From the IMG/VR virus record IMGVR_UViG_3300036398_003808: 20,000 bases of DNA. One strand, given 5' to 3'. Below are positions 5,506 to 18,077 of this stretch, piece after piece; the stretch's first letter is position 1, and each line of letters opens with the position of its first letter. The position numbers and the translations under genes are program-made. The notes beneath the pieces are model-generated. The model worked only from the letters and a program-made list of their open reading frames with translations, did not search any database and was not told where the DNA came from. The DNA is from an uncultured virus (IMG/VR IMGVR_UViG_3300036398_003808) (lineage: Duplodnaviria > Heunggongvirae > Uroviricota > Caudoviricetes).

Positions 5506-6033
5506 TTATTGGTTGAGTGCATACCGCGGGTGGAAGATGCCTTCCAACTTGCCGGTGTTCCTATTGAGGAAGCTGCGGATCCCGATCATGTCGTGAGTGA
5601 ACTCATCGGCGCTGGCTGCCAGCAGCTCCGCCAGCATAAGCGGGCAGCCGTGATTGTGGCAGAGGACGATGTCCGTCACCCACTGCTGCTCATCCTCGGT
5701 GCACGGCAGAATACTGCGCGTATGTATACCCAGACTCAGCGTATGTATACCCAGACTCATTGCGCGTTGAGCGACGCGTAGGATGAGATAACCCTCGTAG
5801 GCGCTGGTTCTGAGGTTTAGTTCAGTCTTCTCCCGTATGGGCTCGACGCTTTGGATCAGCGCCTCGTATGTCACGTCCTCCGGAAACTGATTGTAGTCAG
5901 TGTTCCTGGCCTTCTCCCTGGCCGCGTCCCTTGCCCTTGCTGCCTCTCCGGAGACTTCTCCGTCCATCACGACGTCGAATGTGGCCTCGCGGATGGAAAG
6001 TCGGCGAACGCCGATGTGGTATTTGTGTTTCAT
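5506..6033 (-). CDS. Hypothetical protein with C-terminal DUF6874-like domain, 175 aa
   Basis: C-terminus CPLMLAELLAASADEFTHDMIGIRSFLNRNTGKLEGIFHPRYA resembles DUF6874. Start at ATG 6033 (ATGA overlap). Confidence 0.72.
   Translation of the reverse strand: MKHKYHIGVRRLSIREATFDVVMDGEVSGEAARARDAAREKARNTDYNQFPEDVTYEALIQSVEPIREKTELNLRTSAYEGYLILRVAQRAMSLGIHTLSLGIHTRSILPCTEDEQQWVTDIVLCHNHGCPLMLAELLAASADEFTHDMIGIRSFLNRNTGKLEGIFHPRYALNQ
5718..5759. repeat. Perfect 21-bp tandem duplication (GCGTATGTATACCCAGACTCA x2)
   Basis: Copies at 5718-5738 and 5739-5759; in frame, giving SLGIHTL-SLGIHTR. Confidence 0.97.
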
Positions 6034-6275
6034 GATTCTGTGGTTTCTGCTTTGTGTTGCCACCATCCGCGATACTCCACCCCATCGGGCGGGTCGGTGT
6101 CGTCCATCCGGATGTGATCGTTCAGCTCGCCCTCGCGGTAACCCTGCTTTACCATTTCCGCGATTCTGTTCTGCGCCGTCTCCTCCAGCGCGTCGCAATG
6201 CTTGGTATCGATCGACTGTCCGCCCGGGCGCCACCAGCGAAAGGTGTAGGTGTGCTTTCCAGTGAACTCTTTCAC
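6030..6275 (-). CDS. Phage hypothetical protein, 81 aa (GYREGEL...EYRGWW)
   Basis: GTGA overlap at the start and ATGA overlap at the end; coding-like composition. Confidence 0.78.
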   Translation of the reverse strand: MKEFTGKHTYTFRWWRPGGQSIDTKHCDALEETAQNRIAEMVKQGYREGELNDHIRMDDTDPPDGVEYRGWWQHKAETTES

Positions 6276-7123
6276 GCCATCAGCGACATCTTCCCGAGCG
6301 CCTCCTCCATGTTGAAGTCGCGCCCGTCGAAGTGCAGGTCGCGCTCGGCCGGCAGCTTAAACCGGGGACCACGGATGGTCTCCAGTTCCTTGAGGCTCAC
6401 CGTGCCATACTCGACGCATCCGAGGCCGAGGTCGCAGACAGCCCACAACGTGTCTCCGTCGTCCTCGATGCTGCACAGCAGCCACGTCGCCGAGCCCTCC
6501 GGCAGGAAGATCTTGTAGATCGGCTGCGGCTCCTTGCCGACGGCCGCACGCAGCTTCGCCTTCATCGCATCGGTCAGCAGCGACTTGCGCTCCGGTTCTT
6601 TCGGCGCCGCGCGCTCCATCTCCACGGGCTGCCCCAGTGCCGTCAGCAGCTTCTTCTTGAAGTCGTGGTCGGCAATCGCCCGTGTGTCCCTGACGCTGTC
6701 CTTCTTCTCGACGAGCAGCGTCAGGGTGTGACTCCACCCCAGCGTATGCAGCACCAAGTGCTTCTTGAGGTAGTCGATCAGCGCATCGGTGCCCTCCGCG
6801 TTGTAGTCGATGAAGCGTCCGCCCTTGCCGTCCATGACGAACGACAGGCATCCGCCTTCGGCGCGCGCGTGGGACTCGAAGATGGGGCGCGACTCCTCGT
6901 GGCCGCGCAGCACGATGGCGCCGGCCCTCAGGACTCCCTCCAGTCCGTAGATCTTGCGACCGCGCGGCTCGGAGTAGCACAGCTTCTCGCCTTGCGACGT
7001 CTCAAGCCAGCCTTTGGACACGATGGGTTTGCGGACGTCGCAACCCATCATGCCGCCACCGACGACCAGCAGGGTGAATTTGGACTTTGGCTTGGATAGG
7101 ATTTCGATTGCAGGATTTCTCAT
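6272..7123 (-). CDS. DUF2958-domain protein with long N-terminal extension, 283 aa
   Basis: C-terminal KIFLPEGSATWLLCSIEDDGDTLWAVCDLGLGCVEYGTVSLKELETIRGPRFKLPAERDLHF is typical of DUF2958. ATG 7123 overlaps the upstream TGA. Confidence 0.85.
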   Translation of the reverse strand: MRNPAIEILSKPKSKFTLLVVGGGMMGCDVRKPIVSKGWLETSQGEKLCYSEPRGRKIYGLEGVLRAGAIVLRGHEESRPIFESHARAEGGCLSFVMDGKGGRFIDYNAEGTDALIDYLKKHLVLHTLGWSHTLTLLVEKKDSVRDTRAIADHDFKKKLLTALGQPVEMERAAPKEPERKSLLTDAMKAKLRAAVGKEPQPIYKIFLPEGSATWLLCSIEDDGDTLWAVCDLGLGCVEYGTVSLKELETIRGPRFKLPAERDLHFDGRDFNMEEALGKMSLMA

Positions 7124-7398
7124 GGGATTTTGATGAATAGTGTTTTTAGATGCTCCTCGGTGCGTCGGAACGGGTCCGACAGGTCTCCTTCGTCTGACTG
7201 CACCAAGCACCGTTTGCCTTTGTAGGTGCAGAACACCGGATTGAAGTTGCCGATCTGCTCAGCGCGCAGCACGCGCTTGATCGTCTCCACCTTCTCGTGG
7301 TGTCCGTAGTTGCCGGTGATGGCGCCCATGGATTCGCTGCCGTAATCCGTCTGGCCGGGCAGGTAGCGTCGGACCTCGATGGTGTGTTTCTTCTTCAT
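7120..7398 (-). CDS. Hypothetical protein, 92 aa
   Basis: ATG 7398, ATGA overlaps at both ends. Confidence 0.78.
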   Translation of the reverse strand: MKKKHTIEVRRYLPGQTDYGSESMGAITGNYGHHEKVETIKRVLRAEQIGNFNPVFCTYKGKRCLVQSDEGDLSDPFRRTEEHLKTLFIKIP

Positions 7399-12879: not shown

Positions 12880-13137
12880 TGTAATTTTTTTCGGTGTGAG
12901 AACAGCGGTTTCCCGTCTGCTCCCGTCGGTGTGAGTTCCACTTCGATGTCGTCCTTGGGAACCTTCCCATGATTGCGCCACCAGATTGCATGCCTCAGCT
13001 GCTTCACACTCTTGCCGCGGGCATACATCCAGAACTCACAGGCCAATAATCACAGGAGCCCGCGCGTCCAGCAGGCGTTGCATTTCGGCAGGAATCAGGA
13101 TGTTCGCTGACACCGTGACTGTCTTTGCTGCGCTCAT
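12880..13137 (-). pseudogene. Possible frameshifted small gene (MSAAKTVTVS...PVI / ACEFWMYARGK...)
   Basis: ATG 13137 overlaps the def stop and runs 33 codons to TGA 13036. Coding-like sequence continues in the +1 frame from about 13046 with no stop before the next gene. Confidence 0.4.
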
Positions 13138-13661
13138 GACTTCGCCGCCTTGCACGTCGCCATGGCCTCGTCGCGCAGCACTGGCGTGCCGGATTGTAGA
13201 AGAGTGATGCCGCGGAGGTGGTCGTGTTCGTGCTGGAACACGCGTGCCGGCAGACCGGTCAACTTCTTGTCCGCGATCTTGTGCCCCTGCTCGTTGGTCC
13301 AGGACGCCAGGATGACGTGTTCGCGTTCGACGCGGAACTGCCGTCCGGGTAGGGACAAGCAGCCTTCGACGTCGGTGACCTTGACCGACTTGGGCCCGGG
13401 GCGCCAGGTCGGGTTGACGCACAGGTGCGCGACGCTCGAATTGACGTTCCCGGAGGACGTGACTCTGGCGCTCGCGGCCAGGAAGAAGAAATTCTCCCGC
13501 AGGCCGACCTGGTTCGCGGCGAGGCCGCATGCGGACTTCTCACGGGCGAGCCGCATCAGGTCCGGGCGGTAAGCGCGTATTGCCGCTGGGTCCGATTGTA
13601 TCCCGGTCAGGTCTTCTCCGAGAATGTTGTCGCGCGTGTTGATCAGTTTTATGGTTATCAT
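13134..13661 (-). CDS. def: Peptide deformylase
   Basis: All three PDF motifs: ACGLAANQVG (GxGxAAxQ, first Gly replaced by Ala), EGCLSLPG, and ARVFQHEHDHLRG (HExDH). Confidence 0.95.
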   Translation of the reverse strand: MITIKLINTRDNILGEDLTGIQSDPAAIRAYRPDLMRLAREKSACGLAANQVGLRENFFFLAASARVTSSGNVNSSVAHLCVNPTWRPGPKSVKVTDVEGCLSLPGRQFRVEREHVILASWTNEQGHKIADKKLTGLPARVFQHEHDHLRGITLLQSGTPVLRDEAMATCKAAKS

Positions 13662-13671
13662 GGGTACAGCA

Positions 13672-13705
13672 AGAAGGCGTCCACGTGTACACGTGGACGC
13701 CTTCT
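13672..13705 (-). terminator. Perfect 34-bp palindrome; probable terminator or regulatory hairpin
   Basis: AGAAGGCGTCCACGTGT|ACACGTGGACGCCTTCT between the 73-aa gene and def; U-tract is weak. Confidence 0.6.
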
Positions 13706-13729
13706 GAAAGAGGTTAAGTTGTGGTCCGA

Positions 13730-13951
13730 CTAGACGGCCTGAGCGATGCTCGCTTCGGCTTCCTCGATCATCAGACCGGTGCCCAGCATGCGAGCGAGGG
13801 TCGCGACCTTCGTCAGCTGCTCGTCTTCGCGCGGCCAGCCGGCGGCGAGGAGCTCTTGCTGCTGCGGCGAGGCCGAGGCAGATTTTTCCAGGGTGGAGAA
13901 TCCGGAACGAACAACAGCCCCGGTGATTTGGAGAAGCGCGAGATTAGTCAT
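13730..13951 (-). CDS. Hypothetical protein, 73 aa, possibly virion-associated
   Basis: Fills the gap after the RNAP gene; a promoter-like motif abuts its ATG; contains LEKSAS and LTKVAT. Confidence 0.72.
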   Translation of the reverse strand: MTNLALLQITGAVVRSGFSTLEKSASASPQQQELLAAGWPREDEQLTKVATLARMLGTGLMIEEAEASIAQAV

Positions 13952-13986
13952 GGCGGAATCCTACGCCAGCCGGTCTCGCAGCTCAA
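13952..13986 (-). promoter_or_regulatory. Promoter-like element TTGAGC-17nt-TAGGAT, 6 nt before ATG (leaderless)
   Basis: Sigma70-like hexamers with a 17-nt spacer; closely resembles the element at 18002-18035. Confidence 0.6.
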
Positions 13987-13987
13987 G

Positions 13988-15901
13988 CTATTTCTGCATG
14001 ACATCCGCCAGCGGCACACGCCCAGCGAGGACGTCCTCGAGCTGCTGCTTCGTCAGTCCCATCATCGTGCGCGCGGCGTCTTCCATCGCTGGATTGAGGA
14101 TGGGCCGCGGCAGACGAATGCGGCCCCACCGCTCTCCATTCAGCAGCCGATTGTCGAAAAGGCCACCGGGGATCGGTGTCAGGTTGCGAAGATTTACCAT
14201 CTCGCCGTTTTCGACGTCGATCGGATCGCGCTCGTCCAGGTCGCCGTCCGTGAATGGCGCGAGGCGATACTTGCCCTTGCCGGAGTTGCGCGTGTTGATG
14301 CCGGCGCCCGCCAGCAGCGCGCGGAACTTGTGCCAGACAAACGGCTCGCCGATCTTTGGTAGCGTCTTGTCCGTGCGCAGTGCCATCCAGAAGTCGTGAT
14401 TCTTCTGCCCGCGGATTGTGGCATTCTCCCGCATCAGCGAGTAGGCCCCGCTGGACAGTGTTGCAAAATTCTCGAGACCCGAGAAGCGTTTGGCCTGTGC
14501 GAATTCGCCACCGCCGCGCGTCGGCTGCTGATTCTGGTCGTAGCTGCCCGTGCCGCGGGCGCTGATCTTGCCTTCCGACGTGTGGTGGAGCTTGTGGACG
14601 AAACCGTAGCCCACCGTCACCGGCGCATCCAGCGTCCGGCCTTCTTCCGGATCGTAGACCATCTCCTGTGACTGCACGCCATTCTCGCGTTCCAACTGGT
14701 CGATGTAGTCGTTCCAGTTTTGTCCCTTCGGCAGGTAGCTGGGCAGCTTCAGCGCGTGCCCCAGCTTCTTGGCGACCTTGCCGAGCCGCAGCTCGTGCTG
14801 TGACGCCGGGTTCGCCCGGGAGACCAGGGACAGCGGATTGAGCAGCGCATCCAGCGGCTGTCCGTCCTCCGTCCGCGGCATCTGGTCGTCGGGAATGATC
14901 TTCGAGACGGTCGCCTTGGCGCCCTGCCGCAGCACGATCTTGTCTCCGACTTCCGTCGGCTTCAGGAATTTCAGCACCACCTTGTAGCCGTTCTTGGTCG
15001 CGCGCGCGGCGATGACCTGGGCCGGCTGCTGTCCGTGCCACACCTGAGCGGCGTCGCGGCGCTGCTGCCTCAGCGCCTTGCTGAGGCGCCCGATGTTTGC
15101 GCCGTCTGACGACAGCGTGCGAGGCATCGTCGCGAGCATGACGGGGTCGCCAGACTCCAGCACGGTGCCAGGTCGCACCAGCCCGTGTTCGTCAAAATTT
15201 TCCAGCTTCTCCTTGGTGAAGCGGTTCGGGAAGAGGGCGCGGTAGTGGCTGAGACCTGTCTTCAGATTGTCCGAGCGGTCCTGGTGCATCACCTTGTATT
15301 GGACGGCGGACAGGCGCTTGGCGAACGACTCGCTGACAGGCATGGCGTCGTCCATTCCGAAGCCCTTGAATGGCACCAGAGCGATGCGGGCGTTCAGCCC
15401 CATGTTTTGCACGCCGTTGTCGTCCGTGTAGGACGATGCTGCCATCATCTGCCCGGGTTTGAAGGTGTCACCTTTCTTGAGCAGTGCGCGGGAGGTTATG
15501 CCCGATTTCTGGTTGAAAAATTGTTCGTTGTACAGGTCGACGTCCGCCGTCTCGCCGTCATCGTAGGAGACGCGGATGTAGTCCGGCGTGACGCTGATGA
15601 CGCGACCGGCACGCTTGGCGCGGACGGCGCCCATGTTCTCGCCGACGATTTCGTCAAAGCTGCGCCCTTCGGGGTCGGACGTGTCCAAGTTCTGGATCAG
15701 CGGAGCTTCGCCCTTGTCGATCGCCAGCGCCTGGTTCGCGAACCGCGCGCCGTAGAACAGCCGCGGCGCTTGCACTGCTCCCGCCAGCGGAATCATGTTG
15801 GTGTGTGACCCAAACTGCTGCGAGGGCGAGGACAGCTCGTAATCGACATCCGGATCGTCATCCGGCACCTCTTCGAGGCGGTTGTTGCGTACGACGTGCA
15901 T
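13988..15901 (-). CDS. rpoB: Phage multisubunit RNA polymerase chain: C-terminal half of beta fused to an N-terminal fragment of beta-prime
   Basis: RpoB-like blocks TNMIPL..PRLFYGARFANQAL, GLNARIALVPFKGFGMDDAMPVSE, VGDKIVLRQGAKATVSKIIPDDQMP, DALLNPLSLVSRAN, VTVGYGFVHKLHH..KISARGTGSY..QQP, AKRFSGLE. Then RpoC-like VENGEMVNLRNLTPIPGGLFD and ERWGRIRLPRPILNP. Confidence 0.92.
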   Translation of the reverse strand: MHVVRNNRLEEVPDDDPDVDYELSSPSQQFGSHTNMIPLAGAVQAPRLFYGARFANQALAIDKGEAPLIQNLDTSDPEGRSFDEIVGENMGAVRAKRAGRVISVTPDYIRVSYDDGETADVDLYNEQFFNQKSGITSRALLKKGDTFKPGQMMAASSYTDDNGVQNMGLNARIALVPFKGFGMDDAMPVSESFAKRLSAVQYKVMHQDRSDNLKTGLSHYRALFPNRFTKEKLENFDEHGLVRPGTVLESGDPVMLATMPRTLSSDGANIGRLSKALRQQRRDAAQVWHGQQPAQVIAARATKNGYKVVLKFLKPTEVGDKIVLRQGAKATVSKIIPDDQMPRTEDGQPLDALLNPLSLVSRANPASQHELRLGKVAKKLGHALKLPSYLPKGQNWNDYIDQLERENGVQSQEMVYDPEEGRTLDAPVTVGYGFVHKLHHTSEGKISARGTGSYDQNQQPTRGGGEFAQAKRFSGLENFATLSSGAYSLMRENATIRGQKNHDFWMALRTDKTLPKIGEPFVWHKFRALLAGAGINTRNSGKGKYRLAPFTDGDLDERDPIDVENGEMVNLRNLTPIPGGLFDNRLLNGERWGRIRLPRPILNPAMEDAARTMMGLTKQQLEDVLAGRVPLADVMQK

Positions 15902-15904
15902 GCG

Positions 15905-18001
15905 CTAGGACTGAGCCGCGGCGAGGCGCGGATCGGTTGTGATCTGGTTGCCGTAGATCTGACTGATGATCCCCATCCGATCGGGTGAGTTTACCATGTC
16001 GGACTCGCGCATGTAGCGCGGCGGCTGAGGCGTAGTGAGACGCTTCTTCAGCATCCAATCGAACATCGTGTCTCCAAGCGCTCCGTAGGATGCGCGATAG
16101 AGTCCAAGCCGCGGAAACAGCGCGTTGGCGCCGGCGTGATTGTTGAGCATCTGCCCTGATTCGGGCGCGAGATGCCGGAAAGGCTTCGGCACGGTCCGTC
16201 CGGTCTCCGGGTCGATCGAGCCGGGCACACCGGCGGTGCCAGTGGTGTAACTATCGTTGCCGTTGACCTGCAGACGCCCAGGTGCAGGAGGTCCGATCAT
16301 CGGCGGCGGCGGACTTGCGACTTCGGGCGGCTCGGGCGGTATGCCGGTGGTGTAGGATCGTCCGTTCACCACCGTGTTGCCCTGCGCGGCCGCCTTGATT
16401 TGACCGACACGCTTCTGCAGCCGATCGATGCGGTTGCCGATCAGCCGTCCGGCGATCGTGTTCTCGCTGTCGCTCGCGGACGCCGCGCCGTCCGCCTGGG
16501 CCTTGCCCATCGCGGCCGTCATCTTCGCCTGCTCCTTCTGCACTGCGGACGTGGCCTTTGCCTGCTCCTTCTGCAGTGCAGCCGTGGCCTTTGCCGTCTC
16601 GAGCTGCAACTTCAGCACTTCTTTTTCCTGCTGCTGCTTGCCCAGCTCTTGCTGAAAGCGCTGCTCCTGCTCCATCTGCGCCTGCGTGGCTGCCTGCTCC
16701 GTCTGGCCCTGCTGCTGTGCAGCGGCCTGCTCGGCCTGCATGGCTTTTTGTTCGGCCTGCATCACCGCAGGGTTTGCGGCCGGCGGTGGCGTGATGGAGT
16801 TGGCAGTCGCCTGCTGCTGATTCTGCATCCGCAGCGCTGGGTTCTGTCCGAGCTGCGGCGGCACTGGGACGGCGCCGGCCGGCGCTGGTCCTAGCGCATA
16901 CTTGGTGAGTTCGGCGACGAGACCCACCAGCGACGCAGCGGACTTCTCCACAGGCTGCGGCTGCTTCTCGTTGCGATGCTTCGTGCGCGCGCGAGTTTCC
17001 GTGCGCAGGCGGCGGCGTGTATCGCGCCCCAACCGCTGCAGCAGCGTGTTTGAGAGCTGCAGGTTTCCGACAGGCATCTGAATTTGCGTTTCGATGTCGC
17101 CGGGGTTCGCTGTCGGCAGCGTGACGCTCGCCGTCCCGGCTGAGTCCAGAGCCAGCCGCTTCTGCTCCATGTCGCTGTTCTGCTTCGCCTTGTAGAGCAG
17201 TATACCGAGGGCACCCAGGCCGAGCCCGCCGGCTCCCAACCAGACTTCCTTCGGGATGGATTTGATCGGGTTCTCGGCTGGCGGTTTCGCGCGGTCGTGT
17301 GCAAAGGATTTCGCCGCCTCGGTCGCCGCGTTGTCGACGTTGTAGAGAGTGCCGACTCCTTTCATCGCGAGATCTTTGGTCGGCGCGAGCGCGATAGCAC
17401 CGAGCCCGGTGAGGACGTTCTTGCTCGCGATCTGATGTCCGCCGACGGCCCCGAGCAGGGCGTTCAGCCCGCCCATCAGCGTGCGCTCCTTGTCCCACTT
17501 CCACGGTTGGAAGGTGCTGCCGATCGGACGCTTCGTGTCGGCCGCCTGGTCGAAGAACGCGGTCGTGCCGAGTGCTCCGAGAACGCTGGCCAGCGCTTGG
17601 GTTTTGGTGTTCGCACACTTCTCGATGACCTCGATGTTCAGACTGCGCGCCAGGGCCTTGGACGGCGAGTTGTGCCGCATGATCATGGCCTTCACGTCAT
17701 CGCAATGATCGCGGACTTCCCGGATGACTTGCGCGACGGCCGACTTCGCGAAGCCACGCTCACGGTAGGCCGGCAGAATGCCGACCGCGTAGTATCCGAC
17801 TTTTTTTTCGCCCTCGTCGAACTTCTGCCAGCCGACAAAACCCACCGGGTCCGCGGTGGCAGATTCTTTCACGAGATACAGCCCGCCGTTGAACTGATTG
17901 GTCTTCAGTCCGTGCGGCCAGTAGGACGGATCCTCGTGCAGGATCCGACTCATGATGCCTTCGACGATGGGCAGCTCGGAGGCCGCGGCAACTTTGATCA
18001 T
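15905..18001 (-). CDS. Large multidomain protein, 698 aa: GNAT acetyltransferase + Gly-rich hydrophobic region + Gln/Ala coiled coil + Pro-rich tail; possibly virion/ejected
   Basis: GNAT pattern VGFVGW...VGILPAYRERGFAKSAV...HNSPSKALARSLN; hydrophobic segments such as VWLGAGGLGLGALGILLY. Start set at ATG 18001 because a terminator and promoter lie just upstream. Confidence 0.8.
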   Translation of the reverse strand: MIKVAAASELPIVEGIMSRILHEDPSYWPHGLKTNQFNGGLYLVKESATADPVGFVGWQKFDEGEKKVGYYAVGILPAYRERGFAKSAVAQVIREVRDHCDDVKAMIMRHNSPSKALARSLNIEVIEKCANTKTQALASVLGALGTTAFFDQAADTKRPIGSTFQPWKWDKERTLMGGLNALLGAVGGHQIASKNVLTGLGAIALAPTKDLAMKGVGTLYNVDNAATEAAKSFAHDRAKPPAENPIKSIPKEVWLGAGGLGLGALGILLYKAKQNSDMEQKRLALDSAGTASVTLPTANPGDIETQIQMPVGNLQLSNTLLQRLGRDTRRRLRTETRARTKHRNEKQPQPVEKSAASLVGLVAELTKYALGPAPAGAVPVPPQLGQNPALRMQNQQQATANSITPPPAANPAVMQAEQKAMQAEQAAAQQQGQTEQAATQAQMEQEQRFQQELGKQQQEKEVLKLQLETAKATAALQKEQAKATSAVQKEQAKMTAAMGKAQADGAASASDSENTIAGRLIGNRIDRLQKRVGQIKAAAQGNTVVNGRSYTTGIPPEPPEVASPPPPMIGPPAPGRLQVNGNDSYTTGTAGVPGSIDPETGRTVPKPFRHLAPESGQMLNNHAGANALFPRLGLYRASYGALGDTMFDWMLKKRLTTPQPPRYMRESDMVNSPDRMGIISQIYGNQITTDPRLAAAQS

Positions 18002-18035: not shown

Positions 18036-18077
18036 GAGGAAGCAGCCGCCGCCACCGGTGAGGGTGGCGGCGGCTGC
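18033..18077 (-). terminator. Intrinsic terminator
   Basis: Perfect 15-bp stem (18042-18056 with 18063-18077), 6-nt loop, followed by TTCCTCTTT on the minus strand, 30 nt after the stop at 18108. Confidence 0.85.

Follow-up and report, generated by a model that had tools for sequence, protein, structure and literature searches.

A phage RNA polymerase subunit that runs from the back half of beta into the start of beta-prime, probably a product of the cutting of a fused gene

Natural fusions of the two large RNA polymerase subunits, beta and beta-prime, in Helicobacter and Wolbachia, together with an engineered tether in Escherichia coli, show that one chain is possible in an active enzyme, and functional breaks within the large subunits occur in cyanobacteria and plastids (gamma/beta-prime) and in archaea (B''/B' and A'/A''). 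Among these cyanobacterial, plastid and archaeal splits, to our knowledge, none lies near beta-prime residue 172 and none leaves a chain made of both subunits. Here we describe a gene, gene C, whose predicted product is such a chain, in a 20,000-nucleotide (nt) stretch (the window, meaning the whole stretch analysed) of the uncultured Caudoviricetes record IMGVR_UViG_3300036398_003808. Its closest cultured relatives are gp206 of Salmonella phage Arash (1525 amino acids, aa) and 0261 of Vibrio phage D69 (1527 aa), which are 30% identical to it over gene C residues 21-636 and hold in one frame the regions of four genes of the studied genome. We propose, at a probability of roughly 0.8, that gene C encodes a subunit of a phage two-barrel RNA polymerase made from five genes, and that it descends from a fused gene of the Arash gp206 type that was later cut.

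The polymerase of Arash consists of gp206, gp216 (606 aa) and the sigma factors gp10 and gp196, and has unannotated homologues in Vibrio phages D69, D148 and D181. By mass spectrometry gp206, gp216 and gp10 count among the proteins most abundant in purified particles, and gp206 is labelled 'subunit beta', with no fusion mentioned, in the accessible part of that paper (PMC10585845). The polymerases of jumbo phages, as described in the accessible parts of two other papers, are broken within beta and within beta-prime, come as two enzyme sets and use no sigma (PMC7598289, PMC7824862); the beta-prime break of the phiKZ/AR9 type follows the catalytic barrel and takes the cyanobacterial position (PMC7598289).

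Gene C has an ATG start, 637 codons and a TAG stop at window 13988-13990, exactly the protein that a first-pass annotation of the window had delimited, and can be divided as follows.

13988..15901, minus strand: gene C, a predicted 637-aa subunit, beta C-half plus beta-prime N-terminal segment (open reading frame (ORF) list and translation)
14282..15901, minus strand: gene C residues 1-540, the beta part, from about E. coli beta residue 632 to the beta C-terminus (phmmer, BLASTP, Foldseek)
14513..15514, minus strand: gene C residues 130-463, RNA_pol_Rpb2_6 (Pfam), containing D185, K321, R325, K329, R362 and H440
13991..14281, minus strand: gene C residues 541-637, the tail, putatively beta-prime up to residue ~172 less the zinc-binding stretch, with no cysteine (through the fused relative P0099 and a profile of fused forms)

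Homology over the beta part is direct. The match to Rpb2_6, a hybrid-binding domain that includes the double-psi barrel, has an E value of 9.2e-45 (153.8 bits against a cut-off of 23.4), and no other Pfam family matches gene C at E <= 0.1. Among solved structures, phmmer aligns residues 6-528 with residues 646-1171 of the 1266-residue bacterial beta chain 7l7b_C (E 2.7e-46), while BLASTP sets gene C residue 19 opposite residue 650 of E. coli K-12 RpoB; the start in mid-beta, first estimated at residue ~660, is placed by these searches near E. coli beta 632-650. In the BLASTP alignment D185 corresponds to D814, K321 to K1065, R325 to R1069, K329 to K1073, R362 to R1106 and H440 to H1237, and the five of these that the first-pass annotation had named as retained (all but R325) are invariant in an alignment of 54 homologues. 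An AlphaFold2 model of gene C (mean predicted local distance difference test score, pLDDT, 80.1; predicted TM-score 0.63) finds in Foldseek only beta chains, the best being 8gzh_C at E 7.8e-41, a result that carries no information on the tail. In PHROGs, gene C matches an unnamed 1191-position family over positions 608-1100. Gene C is best read as part of a bacterial-type RNA polymerase that the phage itself encodes, a part that begins in the second half of beta and, on the evidence given below for its tail, enters the start of beta-prime.

The window is the reverse strand of bases 130198-150197 in a virus record of 184,016 bp that has direct terminal repeats and is rated complete. A Pfam scan of its ORFs found no second polymerase piece within the 20,000 nt of the window, and the genome as a whole has a single Rpb2_6 locus. 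The complementary subunits lie elsewhere in the genome.

Genome 117448-118935, plus strand: piece A, 495 aa, part of the beta N-half (tblastn of gp206)
Genome 119475-121286, plus strand: piece B, 603 aa, part of the beta N-half (Rpb2_3, E 3.7e-6)
Genome 134297-136210, plus strand: piece C, 637 aa, the ORF studied here
Genome 178250-181384 (L017:8250-11384), plus strand: piece D, 1044 aa, with NADFDGD, Rpb1_2 (E 8e-19), LAGLIDADG and intein matches
Genome 22709-24562: piece E, 617 aa, the beta-prime C-half, matched by gp216, with Rpb1_5 at 27.8 bits, just below the cut-off

In a tblastn search of the genome, gp206 residues 49-1525 fall on five collinear plus-strand stretches in the four ORFs A to D, with D hit twice, around an insert. 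Each of the four has its own start and stop, so that they do not form one frame, and together they are spread over 64 kb, with partner genes B and D 13 and 42 kb from C. The beta N-half is provided by A and B, 13-17 kb away, and no chain holds the whole of beta; the NADFDGD part is in D, 42 kb away. The first-pass annotation was right that neither is adjacent to gene C and that the missing subunits should be present in a complete genome. Its dispersed subunit genes are indeed scattered, but they number five, not three. Sigma70_r3 or r4 matches were found by Pfam on two further ORFs of the genome.

The pieces fit together with little gap. In a profile built from 14 fused forms, the stretch covered by A reaches position 265 and that of B runs from 268 to 464, with C taking over at 476, which suggests that the A|B and B|C cuts lose little or nothing. 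At the third cut, the segment from gene C residue 615 aligns at E. coli RpoC 150 and the first residues of D at RpoC 179, and therefore the C|D cut lies near beta-prime 172; the distance across it is 29 residues in total, as between RpoC 150 and 179. Consistently, in a phage beta-prime family of 1216 positions D starts at about 171, and its Rpb1_1 match covers profile positions 174-243. In Thermus beta-prime, extra length before the C|D point is visible in the comparison, presumably the insertion of that subunit. The proposal that the new ends are non-canonical holds clearly for the beta-prime cut, but less so for B|C, near beta 625-635, which we take to be close to the archaeal B split and to permissive sites in E. 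coli.

The tail is the part of gene C whose identity takes most argument. In nine bacterial RpoB rows the alignment ends 42-94 residues ahead of the end position of gene C, and so approximately 97 residues of the protein lie beyond beta. What they are is indicated by relatives in which the frame goes on. P0099 (1046 aa) is 50% identical to gene C over residues 4-631 and continues without a stop; it carries Rpb1_1 at 542-774 (profile 7-271), at 40.7 bits against a cut-off of 39.7, plus Rpb1_2. Arash gp206 has Rpb1_1 at 1022-1260, at 29.4 bits, which is below the cut-off. A profile of 24 fused forms, beginning at the position of gene C residue 536, aligns with E. coli RpoC at 31-65 (8.8 bits) and 150-551 (259 bits), in that order. 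RpoC 66-149 is spanned by merely 27 positions of this profile and the tail has no cysteine, and hence the zinc-binding stretch, which we take to lie there in E. coli beta-prime, is missing from the tail. The tail is also under purifying selection. Its majority share is 0.63, compared with 0.63-0.71 in the rest of gene C, so that the two are conserved alike. Measured against an 83%-identical relative, the ratio of non-synonymous to synonymous substitution rates (dN/dS) is 0.11 for the tail and 0.13 for the beta part; for gene C against 99%-identical relatives it is 0.06.

This architecture is widespread and conserved. A search over 7999 candidates found 190 proteins at E <= 1e-10, 120 rows were classed as C-only, and some 120 protein clusters share both the start and the end of C at 46-99% identity. 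In addition, 170 stand-alone homologues of D, of ~375 aa, were found among 6400 candidates. Fused forms of ~1450-1520 aa, many of them metagenomic, are predominant at 33-40% identity; C+D fusions are few and lie at 41-51%. Among 46 related viral loci, 23 have A-B-C-D contiguous (three of them cut by contig ends) with E nearby, five have D 0-4.5 kb after C, and in 18 C stands alone within 10 kb. All of the five complete relatives have the full set of five pieces, and the cyclic order A-B-C-D-E on one strand is kept in five of six genomes, the studied one included, with a C-D gap of 12-60 kb in those five.

The direction of change can be read from two trees rooted on bacterial beta, one by FastTree (177 rows, after five incomplete rows were dropped) and one by IQ-TREE in its quick mode (52 rows). 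In both, the fused forms are basal and all forms that start where C starts make up one nested clade with support 100. The remainder of this cut clade has four C+D forms (P0128-P0131) as sisters. P0162, a member of the Arash clade, stops ~49 residues past the equivalent of the C end, which is best explained as an independent cut nearby. The fused Arash and D69 forms, the complementary pieces and the rooted trees together support what the first-pass annotation had inferred, an ancestral fusion re-split at new sites. Four deeper-branching proteins (P0168, P0169, P0172 and P0180; 2039-2499 aa) hold beta and the whole of beta-prime in one chain, with Rpb1_5 in three of the four, and one of them is filed in a public metagenome-assembled genome as a beta-prime subunit.

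We suggest the following course of events. The ancestor would have been a gene of the Arash gp206 type, with all of beta fused to the front half of beta-prime. This gene would have been cut three times, at A|B, at B|C near beta 625-635 and at C|D near beta-prime 172, after which DNA would have piled up between the pieces while their order and strand were preserved. In the resulting enzyme C would supply the catalytic half of beta, that is, the second double-psi barrel with its two lysines, the flap and the clamp's C-terminal portion, and this half would stay covalently joined to ~97 residues of the beta-prime start. The pieces would then assemble non-covalently, with the tail of C inserting beside a conserved proline-rich strand of D and completing the clamp core, so that the old beta/beta-prime tether would survive inside C.

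A co-fold of C 430-637 with D 1-298 agrees with this arrangement. Its score was 0.83 in each of three runs and 0.00 for the best of three controls, a mark of 0.83 being reached by 116 of 157 solved complexes and by 2 of 215 mismatched pairs. Between runs at least 98% of contacts are shared, the partner pLDDT is at least 88, and predicted contacts join C 590-607 to D 62-78, the closest being those of 592-604 with 63-72, both among the invariant columns. Co-folding, one of the checks first proposed for the locus, therefore passes its controls, but the score may mirror memory of, or likeness to, solved polymerases, and may thus reflect likeness rather than binding.

Several observations weigh against our reading. 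Rpb1_1 has no match on gene C at E <= 0.1 in Pfam, and a six-frame search of the whole genome returned a single Rpb1_1 match, inside piece D. Rpb2_7, the C-terminal clamp family, matches neither gene C nor any frame in a six-frame search of the genome, although the phmmer alignment does reach beta residue 1171 of 1266. Of the families that a profile scan of the ORF had been expected to return, Rpb2_6 was found and Rpb2_7 and Rpb1_1 were absent. The tail alone (108 aa) gave two chance-level matches against PDB sequences (E 0.35 and 0.38) and no beta-prime chain, and a tail-only profile from 54 sequences met E. coli RpoC at 37-63, the expected place, with 6.6 bits, which is insignificant on a PDB-sized search. 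The whole-family profile against the PDB gave beta chains only among the best 60 of 93 matches. Because the tail alone has no significant beta-prime match, its identity as a beta-prime N-terminus appears to be transitive, through fused relatives, and depends on these intermediates: the RpoC-like end claimed at first stands by way of P0099, Arash gp206 and the fused-form profile, but not by a direct Rpb1_1 match in the tail. No alpha- or omega-like Pfam match was found among 181 scanned ORFs of 60 aa or more, a set that makes up 87% of the genome. RNA-library contigs cover window 13717-13933 and 15881-16070 only, the second with fewer than 31 letters inside C, which is too little to claim transcription. 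Finally, the assembly and activity of the enzyme, its use of the sigma-like proteins and its carriage in the virion as reported for Arash are predicted from sequence. Further points of this kind concern the root of the trees and the insert in D, and are considered with the explanations to which they belong.

It could be argued that the pieces are older than the fused gene, that small subunit genes including a C-type gene came first, that an Arash-type long gene arose by fusion, and that C is a relic. Split subunits of the phiKZ type have been argued to predate the cellular two-subunit form, in the part of the text available to us (Iyer et al. 2021, PMC7824862). The root of our trees is a distant bacterial outgroup, and the long branches of the fused forms were flagged by the tool. 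Moreover, three C+D forms (P0099, P0125 and P0126) lie inside the cut clade, where they are weakly placed; fusion or retention thus occurs within that clade, and it follows that the C|D cut was repeated or reversed, or that those forms branch first. However, the bacterial beta outgroup leaves fused forms basal in both trees and cut forms in one clade, as described above, and the phylogeny first proposed as a check on the locus comes out in favour of cutting, with the distant root as its limit. Also, neither the C|D nor the A|B position is a known break point in cellular polymerases, and in five of the six genomes the pieces lie on one strand in the order that they have within the fused gene. 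A GNAT acetyltransferase gene stands directly upstream of C in 20 of the 23 cut loci and in none of the 23 contiguous ones, as expected of an insertion; it fits an insertion at the B|C break and may mark what separated B from C. We consider this order of events unlikely.

The second alternative starts from piece D, which is interrupted directly after NADFDGD by a 642-aa, LAGLIDADG, intein-like insert. Its first residue is Glu, not Cys, Ser or Ala, its end is Ser-Asn before Thr, and inspection by eye found no His where block B would have one. In L059 a homologous insert has Ser as its first residue, and a D allele without the insert (P0182), 96-98% identical, occurs in near-identical phages. 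If unspliced, the insert may mean that the enzyme of the studied phage is dead, and the polymerase of this genome could then be decaying or inactive, broken at its active site by a splicing-dead element. Yet the insert keeps an open frame of 642 codons with LAGLIDADG and C-terminal splicing-domain matches and an Asn-Thr end junction, the remaining pieces are intact, gene C has the low dN/dS given above against its 99%-identical relatives, and 17 lake-water runs contain at least half of the words of the phage DNA. Decay of the enzyme therefore seems to us quite unlikely, and it bears on the studied genome rather than on the family.

We also asked whether C might be rejoined with its neighbours, by split-intein trans-splicing or by read-through of a stop codon, so that the pieces would not be separate subunits. 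The family is rich in inteins, and the upstream GNAT gene ends in a TAG that lies 3 nt ahead of the C ATG and in frame with C. Against this, the fused relatives align with C over 4-631 of its 637 residues and with D from its first residues, which leaves no room for intein halves, and no intein family matches at the cut ends of C or D. In addition, 120 homologues share the start and stop of C, and the partner genes are 13 and 42 kb off. Read-through of the TAG was rejected since the homologues all begin at the Met of C, and split inteins were rejected since the cut ends align to fused relatives within a few residues and match no intein family; rejoining by either route is very improbable. Last, the record is a metagenome-assembled contig, but we give next to no credence to a chimeric assembly, because window 13700-16200 is covered, without a gap and with six differences, by a contig from a lake-water run that carries no flag as a potential source, each end of C is covered by contigs from two more runs, and both junctions recur in two viral contigs at 96% nucleotide identity and in one at 70-75%, which also disposes of the mis-assembly that had been feared at the ORF ends.

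Our preferred reading, a fused gene that was cut, leaves the added sequence on A and B to be accounted for. At its C-terminus A is extended by 232 aa and at its N-terminus B by 406 aa, and neither extension is present in the fused forms. A relative of the A extension is found at the N-terminus of D in L028 (13635-16217), and a relative of the B extension between C and D within one ORF in L034 (9992-13666); in five relatives the B match lies in an open frame of just 239-483 aa. In an atlas search the A extension reached 0.75-0.77 to Rpb2_2 clusters, below the 0.9 line, and the B extension gave nothing; neither gave anything useful in Pfam at E <= 1. Motifs of the form Lys-x-Ala-(Ala/Ser) stand just outside the polymerase cores, at residues 271, 290 and 318 of A and 370 of B, with none in C or E, in numbers too small for a statistical test. 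It is tempting to speculate, because the extensions sit at new chain ends, their relatives occur at the C|D junction elsewhere and these motifs lie beside the cores, that the polymerase is a virion cargo carried in pieces. Fission might then be tied to packaging, with the A and B extensions as removable targeting or cargo modules that are trimmed in the head, after which five small chains would be ejected and would reassemble inside the host around the tether in C. This idea is doubtful; if true, it would mean that the subunit boundaries of a cellular-type polymerase can be freely re-drawn by the packaging needs of a phage.

Around gene C, the window contains the following features.

15905..18001, minus strand: the GNAT gene upstream of C, 698 aa from an ATG at 18001 (N-terminal Pfam Acetyltransf_1, E 3.3e-7)
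18042..18077, minus strand: a terminator-like hairpin upstream of the GNAT gene, with a 15-bp stem and a T-rich tail (consensus scan only)
13730..13951, minus strand: a 73-aa ORF directly downstream of C, with no family match; not a polymerase piece
13134..13661, minus strand: a peptide deformylase gene (Pfam Pep_deformylase, E 4.5e-27)

The GNAT gene product has an N-terminal GNAT domain, a Gln/Ala-rich middle and a C-terminal part of no recognised family, and the position of the hairpin argues against a longer, TTG-started reading of 793 aa. The 73-aa ORF is kept beside C in relatives down to ~50% identity. In the 42-kb block that lies between C and D, the peptide deformylase gene is the first that can be recognised; the block also contains, within the window, a C5 DNA methyltransferase and proteins of the DUF6874 and DUF2958 families (307-2475, 5506-6234 and 6272-7210, all on the minus strand) and, beyond it, an NAD-dependent ligase and many small ORFs without assigned function. 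Both the phage and its relatives have many inteins: Hint or LAGLIDADG matches fall on a helicase and one further ORF (e.g. genome 92101-94572 and 114755-117403), and some gene C homologues have one or two inteins, with inserts of ~340-430 or 770-790 aa (e.g. P0006, P0028 and P0123). Elsewhere, at genome 105015-108512 (L013:3015-6512), lies a 1165-aa family A DNA polymerase with an N-terminal uracil-DNA-glycosylase-superfamily domain.

If our reading is correct, a boundary between beta and beta-prime that cellular polymerases keep almost everywhere was first erased by fusion in a large phage lineage and then re-drawn elsewhere, leaving a chain that would belong to both subunits. With three clean cuts in more than 100 protein clusters, the lineage would provide a natural map of tolerated breaks, and its series from one chain to five genes would allow assembly without alpha to be compared between relatives; the cultured cousin Arash makes the family approachable by experiment. 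The reading also accounts for annotation pipelines that label such genes just 'beta subunit' and for length-filtered surveys that miss the lineage. Weinheimer and Aylward 2020 described, in the part of their paper available to us, an mReC set (RNAP-encoding Caudovirales) of metagenomic tailed phages whose beta and beta-prime homologues can be aligned with cellular ones, and set a minimum match length of 800 aa for each subunit model, a filter by which the cut lineage would be dropped; in that text 'fused' and 'fusion' are used for crAssphage only and 'split' is absent (PMC7481178). Within the literature searched, we found no paper on a phage fusion of beta with the beta-prime N-terminus or on its re-splitting.

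The fusions of Helicobacter and Wolbachia are full-length and cellular, whereas the studied phage keeps the fusion point within a 637-aa fragment. With Arash, the studied phage shares the domain order Rpb2_3, Rpb2_6, Rpb1_1 and Rpb1_2, then a separate Rpb1_5 gene, and both have sigma-like genes. It differs in that Arash has one chain of beta and the N-terminal part of beta-prime, while here the same regions are divided among four genes over 64 kb, A and B carrying added sequence and D an intein-like insert; also, virion carriage, established by mass spectrometry for Arash, is a prediction for the studied phage. Similarity to jumbo-phage families is weak (phrog matches at E 3e-19 to 5e-11, over short stretches). 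The phiKZ/AR9-type enzymes, as far as the accessible parts of the papers describe them, are likewise phage-encoded beta and beta-prime homologues in several polypeptides without alpha or omega, and they have the same kind of break as the one at D|E here, since the end of gp206 has cyanobacterial gamma chains as its best matches among solved structures. In the same accounts, each of their pieces lies within beta or within beta-prime, they form two sets (virion and non-virion) and they use no sigma, whereas the studied phage has one enzyme set, sigma-like genes and one chain that spans the boundary between beta and beta-prime.

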